Virus record (IMG/VR): IMGVR_UViG_643348547_000013
Length of the DNA: 46,955 nucleotides
Strand: one strand, 5' to 3'
From: a virus
Taxonomy: Duplodnaviria > Heunggongvirae > Uroviricota > Caudoviricetes
Both the position numbers and the translations under genes were made by a program. This document shows positions 16,680-17,379 of the stretch, piece after piece. Within the stretch, counting starts at the first letter, position 1; every line of letters starts with the position of its first letter. The notes below the pieces were generated by a model. It had not been told where the DNA came from. It worked only from the letters and a program-made list of their open reading frames with translations, and did not search any database.

Positions 16680-16703
16680 ACCCGCCACTGAGCGGGTTTT
16701 TTT
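16680..16703 (+). terminator. rho-independent terminator downstream of Q (tR'-like), copy 1
   Basis: ACCCGC-CACTGAG-GCGGGT hairpin followed by T7; candidate pR' (TTGCAT ... TAAGAT) upstream. Confidence 0.6.
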
Positions 16704-16852
16704 GTGCCAGATGTCTCATGAAACTATGAAATGGATTGGTGCGTTAAACATTTTTTCTTATTATCTTTTAGATTTTGGAGAGATGGTTAACGTCTGTATT
16801 CCAGAAACTCGATGATTATTTAATAAATTAGTTTCAATGATGCTTCTAGGTT

Positions 16853-17278
16853 ATGACTGTAATGAAAAAGGTATTAATAGCAGCGATAGGTTTTTGTTTA
16901 GTTGGTTGTGCAGGTATGAAATTACCTGAGTATTCGCAAGTTAAAGCAAGTCCGTATTATACAGATTGCCGTGCGTTTGCCATGGATGTTTATAAAAATG
17001 ATGGATACAGCAAAATTGCGAAAACTACTATCCTTAGCATGGATGATGTGAAGGCTAGATATATTGTGACAGGGTGTGTAGTTGCTATGGGGAAAAACAC
17101 TGTAGAGGAAATCAAAGCTGATCTCTCTGCTAAAGGGAGTTCTTTTGGGCTTATCAGTGGAGCTTGTTCTAGTGCGGCATGTCGGGTTGATGTAGAGCAG
17201 CAAATGAACGCTTATGTACTTGGTAGTTATTATGCTGCAAATAAAAAATTCCCGGATAAAATGAAAGCAGAGTTTTAA
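16853..17278 (+). CDS. lipoprotein moron
   Basis: Signal peptide with lipobox (LVGC); AT-rich; sits between two identical terminators. Confidence 0.7.
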   Translation: MTVMKKVLIAAIGFCLVGCAGMKLPEYSQVKASPYYTDCRAFAMDVYKNDGYSKIAKTTILSMDDVKARYIVTGCVVAMGKNTVEEIKADLSAKGSSFGLISGACSSAACRVDVEQQMNAYVLGSYYAANKKFPDKMKAEF

Positions 17279-17356
17279 GTAAACCTTGTTTTCGATTATA
17301 TGTCGAAGATAAATGTTAGTAACGGCATAATAAGTAAATATATAGCTGTGATAGCA

Positions 17357-17379
17357 ACCCGCCACTGAGCGGGTTTTTT
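17357..17379 (+). terminator. rho-independent terminator, copy 2 (identical to 16680-16703)
   Basis: Same ACCCGCCACTGAGCGGGTTTTTT sequence repeated after the lipoprotein gene. Confidence 0.6.

Follow-up and report, generated by a model that had tools for sequence, protein, structure and literature searches.

The window analysed here, a stretch of 46,955 nucleotides, belongs to a lambdoid prophage of the mEp460/Ayreon/SfV type. In the window and in its relatives the early genes are followed by RusA, KilA-N, DUF968, Q, a cassette and a small ORF (PHROG 331), after which come a DNA methylase, holin, lysin, Rz, terminase and the structural genes. The cassette consists of 653 bp of AT-rich DNA between two copies of a terminator hairpin, it contains one predicted lipoprotein gene and it is located directly 3' of the Q gene. 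Over positions 16600–17400 the G+C content is 0.30–0.39, compared with approximately 0.45–0.58 in the flanks, and the only credible open reading frame between the copies is 16853/16862–17278. The initial annotation had described an AT-rich insert of roughly 650 bp with a single lipoprotein gene in the slot directly downstream of Q, and both parts of this description are confirmed by the length, the G+C content, the single ORF with a lipobox and the identity of the upstream gene as a Q antiterminator (PF03589). The features of the locus are the following.

15820..16572, plus strand: Q antiterminator gene of the YdfT type, 250 aa (Pfam PF03589 Antiterm, E = 9.6e-54; PHROG 127)
16604..16632, plus strand: candidate late promoter PR', TTGCAT-17 nt-TAAGAT, the best sigma-70 match from the Q stop codon to copy 1
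16679..16703, plus strand: terminator copy 1, putative tR', hairpin plus 7 T (repeat and fold; annotated terminator in phages Ayreon and SfV)
16736..16764, plus strand: candidate cassette promoter, TTGGTG-17 nt-TATTAT, the top-scoring site from copy 1 to the lipoprotein start codon
16853..17278, plus strand: lipoprotein gene, 141 aa in the public annotation, or 138 aa with a start at 16862 (lipobox LVG followed by C; phrog_4748)
17356..17379, plus strand: terminator copy 2, hairpin plus 6 T (repeat, fold and terminator scan; annotated terminator in Ayreon)
17380..17705, plus strand: conserved downstream module with the tail GTACCTGTAAACTTGGTGCAGTAC, Chi at 17413–17420 and the small ORF 17478/17502–17705 (PHROG 331)

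The Q gene also matches PHROG 127, the anti-termination protein Q-like family, at 2.7e-108, and matching records annotate it as antitermination protein. At the other side of the cassette, an ISL3 element with 11-bp inverted repeats and an 8-bp duplication lies 500 nt 3' of the insert.

A repeated terminator hairpin and its position behind Q

The two terminators share the exact 24-nt direct repeat AACCCGCCACTGAGCGGGTTTTTT, which occupies positions 16679–16702 and 17356–17379 with a spacing of 677 nt from start to start. A search of the window that allowed up to three mismatches found no third copy, and in 100 shuffles the number of copies expected by chance was 0.00. The 24-mer forms a hairpin whose stem has 7 bp and whose loop has 6 nt, with a U-run behind it (-10.7 kcal/mol, z = -3.4), a stability reached by 0 of 200 shuffles, and it is also listed by a terminator scan. 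These results agree with the two 24-nt terminator copies reported in the initial annotation, in which the coordinates were one base off. The copies differ in their 3' context, copy 1 continuing with a seventh T and GTGCC and copy 2 with GTACC directly after its six T. Since the hairpin and U-run of copy 2 lie 77 nt 3' of the lipoprotein stop codon, the cassette has its own predicted terminator. A search of Rfam over 15500–18600 gave no family at gathering score; the sub-threshold matches (Trp and Leu leader terminators, and STnc130 on the minus strand with E = 0.9) were set aside as generic terminator similarity.

In phage lambda, tR' is the terminator that is overridden by Q. From the Q stop codon to copy 1 the distance is 107 nt, and from the candidate -10 element it is 47 nt; by analogy copy 1 appears to be positioned like tR' of lambda, at about nucleotide 65 of a short PR' transcript. 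The candidate PR' taken alone is not significant against shuffles and is assigned from its position, by analogy with lambda PR'/tR'; transcription from it would stop at copy 1 after about 65 nt. The layout found here, an intrinsic terminator shortly 3' of Q and of a promoter with the methylase, holin and lysin genes after it in the intact relatives, resembles that of lambda, where the terminator likewise lies about 100 nt 3' of the Q stop codon and about 40–70 nt 3' of a promoter-like site, with the late genes after it. Unlike lambda tR', however, this exact hairpin serves at least four Q families, it is also found inside tail-gene clusters, and here it is present twice.

Filled and empty sites in related prophages

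The stretch 16400–17720 is matched in full by 168 complete E. coli genomes, and the same full-length stretch is found in phages Ayreon and mEp460 and in 15 Stx2c phages, of which Ayreon was annotated with both terminators by its authors. Other records match this stretch in two pieces with a total of approximately 645 bp, 677 bp less than the query. The Q leaders of E. coli ECSC054 (L002) and of phage vB_EcoM-720R4 (L003) each lead into one hairpin only, which is joined straight to GTACCTGTAAACTTGGTGCAGTAC, the sequence found 3' of copy 2 in the window; the flanks are otherwise 98–99% identical to the window, and exactly the 677-nt unit is missing. An 86-nt probe for this empty junction was covered to at least 80% in 183 of 5426 complete E. 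coli genomes, and the insert was present in 214 complete E. coli genomes, never as a partial copy, which gives shares among complete E. coli genomes of approximately 4% for the cassette and approximately 3% for its precise absence at the same joint. The expectation that relatives without the insert carry one terminator copy, put forward in the initial annotation, is borne out by L002, L003 and the 183 E. coli genomes. As the filled and the empty alleles are both common and differ by one repeat unit plus cargo, the cassette was gained or lost at the terminator.

The hairpin marks the edge of homology in further arrangements as well. Phages cdtI and PhiR40_1 have an unrelated Q of 121 aa, a cargo gene on the reverse strand and a different leader, and they reach the same downstream module through a variant hairpin. 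In Salmonella (L008) the Q gene and the leader to the left of the hairpin are unrelated to those of the window, and the homology between the Salmonella and the E. coli cassettes begins exactly at the hairpin, the leaders to its left being unrelated. In an O111:H8 prophage (L016) homology stops exactly after the T-run of copy 2, and thousands of records match the query solely up to copy 1 or solely from copy 2 on. The hairpin is a sharp mosaic boundary at both edges. Both copies enclosing unrelated genes, the case that the initial annotation had named as speaking against itself, was not seen at this slot; among 511 loci examined, all 31 terminator pairs spaced by 676–677 nt enclose the lipoprotein gene, and the different cargo of 176 aa that occupies the slot in one strain (L004) ends in its own different terminator and is accompanied by a degraded tR' T-run.

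The identity of the two copies, which had also been pointed out in the initial annotation, is true in this window but is a minority state, as copy 1 equals copy 2 in 7 of the 31 cassettes compared. The loop of copy 1 reads CGCTGA in 21 cassettes and CACTGA in seven, including the window, Ayreon and AR_0085; the remaining three have CCCTGA, TGCTGA and one more CGCTGA, the latter with the partner loop CACAGA in copy 2. Copy 2 has the loop CACTGA nearly always, CACAGA being present in 1 of the 31 cassettes. Empty sites also fall into types: those of the SfV type, with the tail GTGCCTTGATG..., have the G loop in all 14 copies of the G-loop scan, and those of the L002 type, with the tail GTACC..., have the A loop in all 19 copies of the A-loop scan. 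The loop allele follows the right-hand tail. Since the copies differ in most carriers, the repeats do not represent a fresh clean duplication, and the pair is more aptly regarded as two alleles belonging to one terminator family. The tail of the SfV-type empty sites, GTGCCTTGATGTTGG..., differs from that of the L002 type and resembles the start of the cassette, and some of these sites may be deletion scars. SfV was considered as the ancestral empty site and dropped, because the Salmonella alignment puts the start of cassette homology at the terminator itself. A stretch of the 3' untranslated region at approximately 17310–17335 was likewise considered as a decayed remnant of the hairpin that lies 3' of the gene in two other loci (L009 and L012), and it was rejected because the alignment is too weak.

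In the explanation that we consider probable, the locus is a moron cassette that was placed after tR' of an mEp460/SfV-like prophage, with the hairpin as recombination joint, the lipoprotein gene as an insulated unit and the terminator as a member of a portable family. The hairpin copies would recombine within one genome or between co-resident phages, by which the cassette would be moved or removed, and the cargo would be AT-rich foreign DNA encoding an exported, disulfide-bonded lipoprotein. The strongest competitor, to which we assign a probability not far below even, holds that the filled state is ancestral and that the single-copy sites arose by precise deletion between the direct repeats. 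A repeat of 24 nt, identical or with one mismatch and 677 nt apart, is a ready substrate for such deletions; the L002-type empty sites combine exactly the left flank of copy 1 with the right flank of copy 2, the SfV-type empty sites retain about 11 nt matching the cassette start (GTGCCT(T)GATGT) in a scar-like manner, and the finding of the cassette and its two terminators behind a different Q in Salmonella phages indicates that it is old. However, the terminator and the downstream module also occur without the cassette behind unrelated Q genes, where the downstream module abuts the terminator directly, which makes the single-copy state independent of a filled ancestor, and the alleles are about equally frequent, with 183 empty compared with 214 filled genomes. 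Of the initial annotation's view that the repeats are the footprint of an insertion by recombination at the terminator, the joint is supported by the empty sites, which break at the hairpin, whereas insertion and precise loss are indistinguishable.

The lipoprotein gene, its relatives and its expression

The signal peptide of the encoded protein ends in the lipobox MKKVLIAAIGFCLVG followed by C, which fits the pattern [LVI][ASTVI][GAS]C. Among eight homologues Gly15 and the lipobox Cys16 are invariant, as are Cys 36, 72, 102 and 107. From the lipobox and its conservation the cargo is predicted to be a lipoprotein, and two disulfides are probable. In the AlphaFold model the mature part forms a helical bundle with a mean pLDDT of 84 and blocks above 90. 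According to the Lol sorting rule, Ala at position +2 predicts the outer membrane, and the Ala found at +2 of this lipoprotein predicts this location. The protein matches phrog_4748 (function not known) at 1.8e-89; Pfam, NCBIfam and PADLOC gave no match, and no informative structural neighbours were found for the model. Its relatives amount to 11 cluster representatives among 5.8 billion proteins, and a profile search against 1.84 billion 50%-identity representatives returned eight proteins, none of which is tied to a known family. The named sources of these relatives are all Enterobacteriaceae, namely E. coli, Salmonella and Buttiauxella. The family is very narrow, enterobacterial and conserved, and it has no characterised member. 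With the phage lipoproteins Bor/Iss, Cor, T5 Llp, TraT-like proteins and Ltp it shares the small size, the prophage origin and the lipobox, but there is no sequence or family match to them, and the protein described here is predicted to be an all-helical bundle with two probable disulfides. A role in virulence, serum resistance or superinfection exclusion, as raised in the initial annotation, found nothing in its support, the lipoprotein having no characterised relative and no informative fold. Our best guess, held with low confidence, is an envelope-acting accessory protein that exerts, for example, receptor masking or envelope modification.

Homologues of the gene are located at four further kinds of sites: in Salmonella prophages behind a different Q family (PF06530/DUF1133), where the protein is 75–77% identical; in the early region beside VapBC of other Salmonella-type prophages; on a Buttiauxella plasmid; and at a non-phage chromosomal locus between hemA-cdh-blc and type II secretion genes. 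The cargo gene is old and mobile. Approximately 110 nt 5' of the gene are recognisably homologous between the phage and the chromosomal versions, which suggests that the gene brought its own 5' region along when it was captured. Two related terminators also bracket the gene in the post-Q cassette of Salmonella, and their similarity runs 11 nt past the T-run (GTACCTGAAAC compared with GTATCCGAAAC, 9 of 11 positions). A repeat similarity that reaches past the functional terminator favours duplication or recombination over independent recruitment.

Morons of lambdoid phages were reportedly treated by Juhala and colleagues in 2000, and they include stx of the Stx phages as well as the lambda genes bor and lom. 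A moron is defined as a unit with its own promoter and terminator (Cumby et al., 2012, PMC3594210), and a moron insertion site 3' of PR' has been described (Tree et al., 2014, PMC4104026). Like these morons, the cassette is extra DNA that is absent from close relatives, it deviates in G+C content, it consists of one gene followed by a terminator of its own as judged from the sequence, and it lies directly 3' of Q/PR'. Unlike them, it ends in another copy of the terminator that lies ahead of it, its cargo is unrelated to Bor and belongs to a family without a characterised member, and its promoter is only a candidate. It is a real, well-delimited cassette and probably a moron, and its placement is ordinary. 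The literature on mEp460, Ayreon and Stx2c phages, as far as accessible, makes no mention of it.

In a lysogen, the short transcript made constitutively from PR' would end at copy 1, the lipoprotein gene would be driven by the cassette's own promoter (candidate at 16736–16764), and copy 2 would keep the cassette transcript from entering the methylase and lysis genes downstream. Once the prophage is induced, polymerase modified by Q would pass both copies. It is also conceivable, although unlikely in our judgement, that the cassette is no autonomous moron and that the lipoprotein gene lacks its own promoter and serves as a late accessory gene expressed only from PR' under Q, its product acting for instance on the envelope at lysis or guarding the progeny from adsorption to debris. 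No promoter is statistically outstanding, the best site of the cassette scan being no better than shuffles of this AT-rich stretch, no obvious Shine-Dalgarno sequence is present 5' of either ATG, and the gene is in sense orientation inside the late operon. However, terminators directly upstream and downstream form the layout expected of an insulated unit, and the candidate -35/-10 pair is kept in position in the Salmonella cassettes, which contain TTGGTA-17/18 nt-TATCAT at the same place. Moreover, the 5' region of about 110 nt is shared with the chromosomal homologues, which must have their own promoter, and the homologues in the early region, on the plasmid and in the chromosome cannot depend on Q.

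The terminator hairpin as a module junction

The exact 24-mer is present in at least 120 IMG/VR contigs with at least 126 copies, and its flanks fall into at least 34 classes on the left and at least 31 classes on the right among the matches listed. At least 20 of its contexts are mutually unrelated; across 20 unrelated contexts no conservation was found outside the 24 nt and no sigma-70 promoter is attached to the hairpin. Control terminators of equal length from the same kind of prophage gave 2 left and 2 right classes in 66 contigs, and 4 and 4 classes in 120 contigs among the matches listed. The 24-mer follows at least four Q-like families (PHROGs 127, 753 and 304 and the Q of 121 aa), and its other neighbours include an anti-repressor, an AraC-like cargo gene, a baseplate hub, a baseplate wedge, a tail sheath and a tail fibre. 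Its G-loop variant shows 11 left and 11 right flank classes in 67 contigs. In a set with one genome per species, the 24-mer was found in 22 genomes (Enterobacterales, seven Pseudomonas and a few distant MAGs), and at least 16 of these 22 matches lie among phage-like genes. When the loop was left free in a search for the stem AACCCGC/GCGGGTTTTTT, 75 loops were found in 117 copies; the commonest was CACTGA with 9 of the 117 copies, compared with 1 in 4096 if loops were random, and the loops CATTGA (six copies) and CATCGA (four copies) occurred in as many contexts as copies.

A comparable behaviour is known from the promoter-early stem-loops (PeSLs) of T4-type phages, mobile regulatory cassettes (Arbiol et al., 2010, PMC2839356; Comeau et al., 2014, PMC4122927) that contain a terminator, bound indels and mediate modular shuffling (PMC2839356). 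As in PeSLs, a short conserved stem-loop of the terminator type recurs at gene boundaries and bounds indels or replacements between near-identical phages, non-essential ORFan genes lie between the copies, and recombination between the copies is the proposed mechanism. Unlike PeSLs, the element described here occurs in temperate lambdoid and other enterobacterial phages and not in T4-type phages, and the hairpin and T-run alone are conserved with no attached promoter. The 24-mer behaves as a portable module junction, most like PeSL cassettes.

Simple reuse of a common and strong terminator, by convergence and with no part of the copies in the arrival of the cargo, appears improbable to us. It draws on the stem with its 75 different loops in 117 copies, on the exact 24-mer in Pseudomonas and in a few distant genomes, and on one phage type, found also in Yersinia, in which an essential baseplate-hub gene lies between two exact copies spaced by 1428 nt, a case from which it follows that bracketing alone does not prove insertion. 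Yet the frequency of the CACTGA loop far exceeds the random expectation given above, at least 16 of the 22 genome matches have phage-like surroundings, the repeat similarity in Salmonella extends beyond the functional terminator, the empty sites break exactly at the hairpin and the control terminators show no such promiscuity. Given the loop frequency, the phage association and the controls, we reject the view that convergence alone spread the 24-mer; convergence may still explain the popularity of the stem and the few distant matches. Insertion by a trans-acting transposase or site-specific recombinase that targets the hairpin, with the repeat as target duplication, would account for the sharp breakpoints at the hairpin edges and the many hairpin contexts but is very improbable, as the single ORF of the cassette is not a transposase, no recombinase and no terminal inverted repeats were found in it, 24 nt far exceed the usual target duplications, and the nearby ISL3 element shows the classic signature instead.

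Returning to the moron cassette with the hairpin as its joint, the portable terminator that bounds the cassette is the more interesting result compared with the placement of the cassette. As a tentative proposal, which we hold to be rather less than evenly probable, AACCCGC-CAYYGA-GCGGG-T6 would be a portable junction element of temperate phages and the lambdoid counterpart of PeSLs, which would spread from one intergenic site to unrelated others by short-patch recombination or template switching, insulate the genes between its copies and supply homology for the swapping of morons, the present lipoprotein gene among them, and of entire Q/PR' modules between phages that infect Enterobacterales and even Pseudomonas. 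The gain and loss of cargo behind Q, toxins included, is usually ascribed to a vague "illegitimate recombination", and this locus presents a concrete and countable case in which the joint is a defined 24-nt terminator. Should this terminator serve generally as a linker for recombination, the exchange of modules among lambdoid phages, and with it the swapping of Q alleles that influences Shiga-toxin output, could be put to a direct test. The lipoprotein itself is a reasonable candidate for phenotype screens given its carriers, which comprise ST131 (JJ1886), O111:H8 and Stx2c and Stx2k prophages; in some of the Stx2c/Stx2k phage carriers stx is located further downstream of the cassette.

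Sequence elements and cargo of the post-Q slot

The motif GATAAGATTT occurs twice in the region around the candidate late promoter PR' and the first copy of the 24-nt terminator hairpin with its T-run (24-mer), and the first of these occurrences includes the candidate PR' -10 element while the second lies approximately 40 nt downstream, directly 5' of hairpin copy 1, where the repeat could act as a -10-like element for sigma-dependent pausing or for Q loading.

16625-16634, GATAAGATTT, first occurrence
16666-16675, GATAAGATTT, second occurrence

Chi sites (GCTGGTGG) are found 19 times in the window versus 1.9 expected, all 19 within 9939-27412 (9.9-27.4 kb), and the + strand holds 14 of these. 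The sites at 17413 and 17734 follow shortly after terminator copy 2, and RecBCD acting at them in + orientation would promote recombination to their left, into the cargo slot, the site 3' of the Q antiterminator gene.

A homologue of the lipoprotein encoded in this slot, 70% identical, is present on a metagenome contig (L018) in a non-phage chromosomal locus, where it adjoins a lipocalin (Blc) gene and has PulS and type II secretion genes nearby. This chromosomal homologue may represent the bacterial origin of the phage lipoprotein cargo.

4001-4420 of L018, lipoprotein homologue

In E. coli DETEC-E223 (L004) the post-Q slot is filled by a different cargo of 176 aa (PHROG 8867). The tR' hairpin of this locus (2780-2810) has lost its T-run (GCGGGTTAAATTATTTTTT), and insulation of the late operon may then depend on the cargo's own terminator.

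The 24-mer in tail-gene clusters and in Pseudomonas

Two exact 24-mers, spaced by 1428 nt, bracket a baseplate-hub gene within a tail-gene cluster of the IMG/VR contig L090, and the same bracketing of a baseplate-hub gene is observed in Yersinia frederiksenii (L325/L338). Successive intergenic sites in other tail clusters carry terminators with the same stem and differing loops.

2008 of L090, minus strand, exact 24-mer
3436 of L090, minus strand, exact 24-mer

The exact 24-mer of the enterobacterial phages was also found in seven Pseudomonas species (L327, L331, L337, L339, L341, L343, L344), with phage-like genes in most of the neighbourhoods and a GGGGCATGTACGCCCG motif upstream of the 24-mer common to four of the seven loci. 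These copies either crossed between host groups or arose by convergence.

Insertion element and early-region RNAs

An ISL3-family element of 1885 bp interrupts a DNA methyltransferase gene 21 nt into the gene. Its terminal inverted repeats are 11 bp long (GGGTCTTCCCC / GGGGAAGACCC), the target duplication flanking it measures 8 bp (AAAAATAA), and the remainder of the methyltransferase gene has a new start at an ATG within the inverted repeat on the right. This element is absent from the AR_0085 prophage, which is near-identical otherwise.

17878-19762, ISL3-family element
17977-18495, its DUF1706 (ClbS/DfsB-like) passenger gene
18514-19734, its transposase gene
19746-20801, ORF, remainder of the DNA methyltransferase gene

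Rfam matches at gathering score identified three RNA elements in the early region of the window.

8885-9001, ALIL pseudoknot (frameshift signal, IS3-family element)
10607-10683, isrK Hfq-binding RNA
10708-10795, C4 antisense RNA (P1/P7-type antirepressor control)
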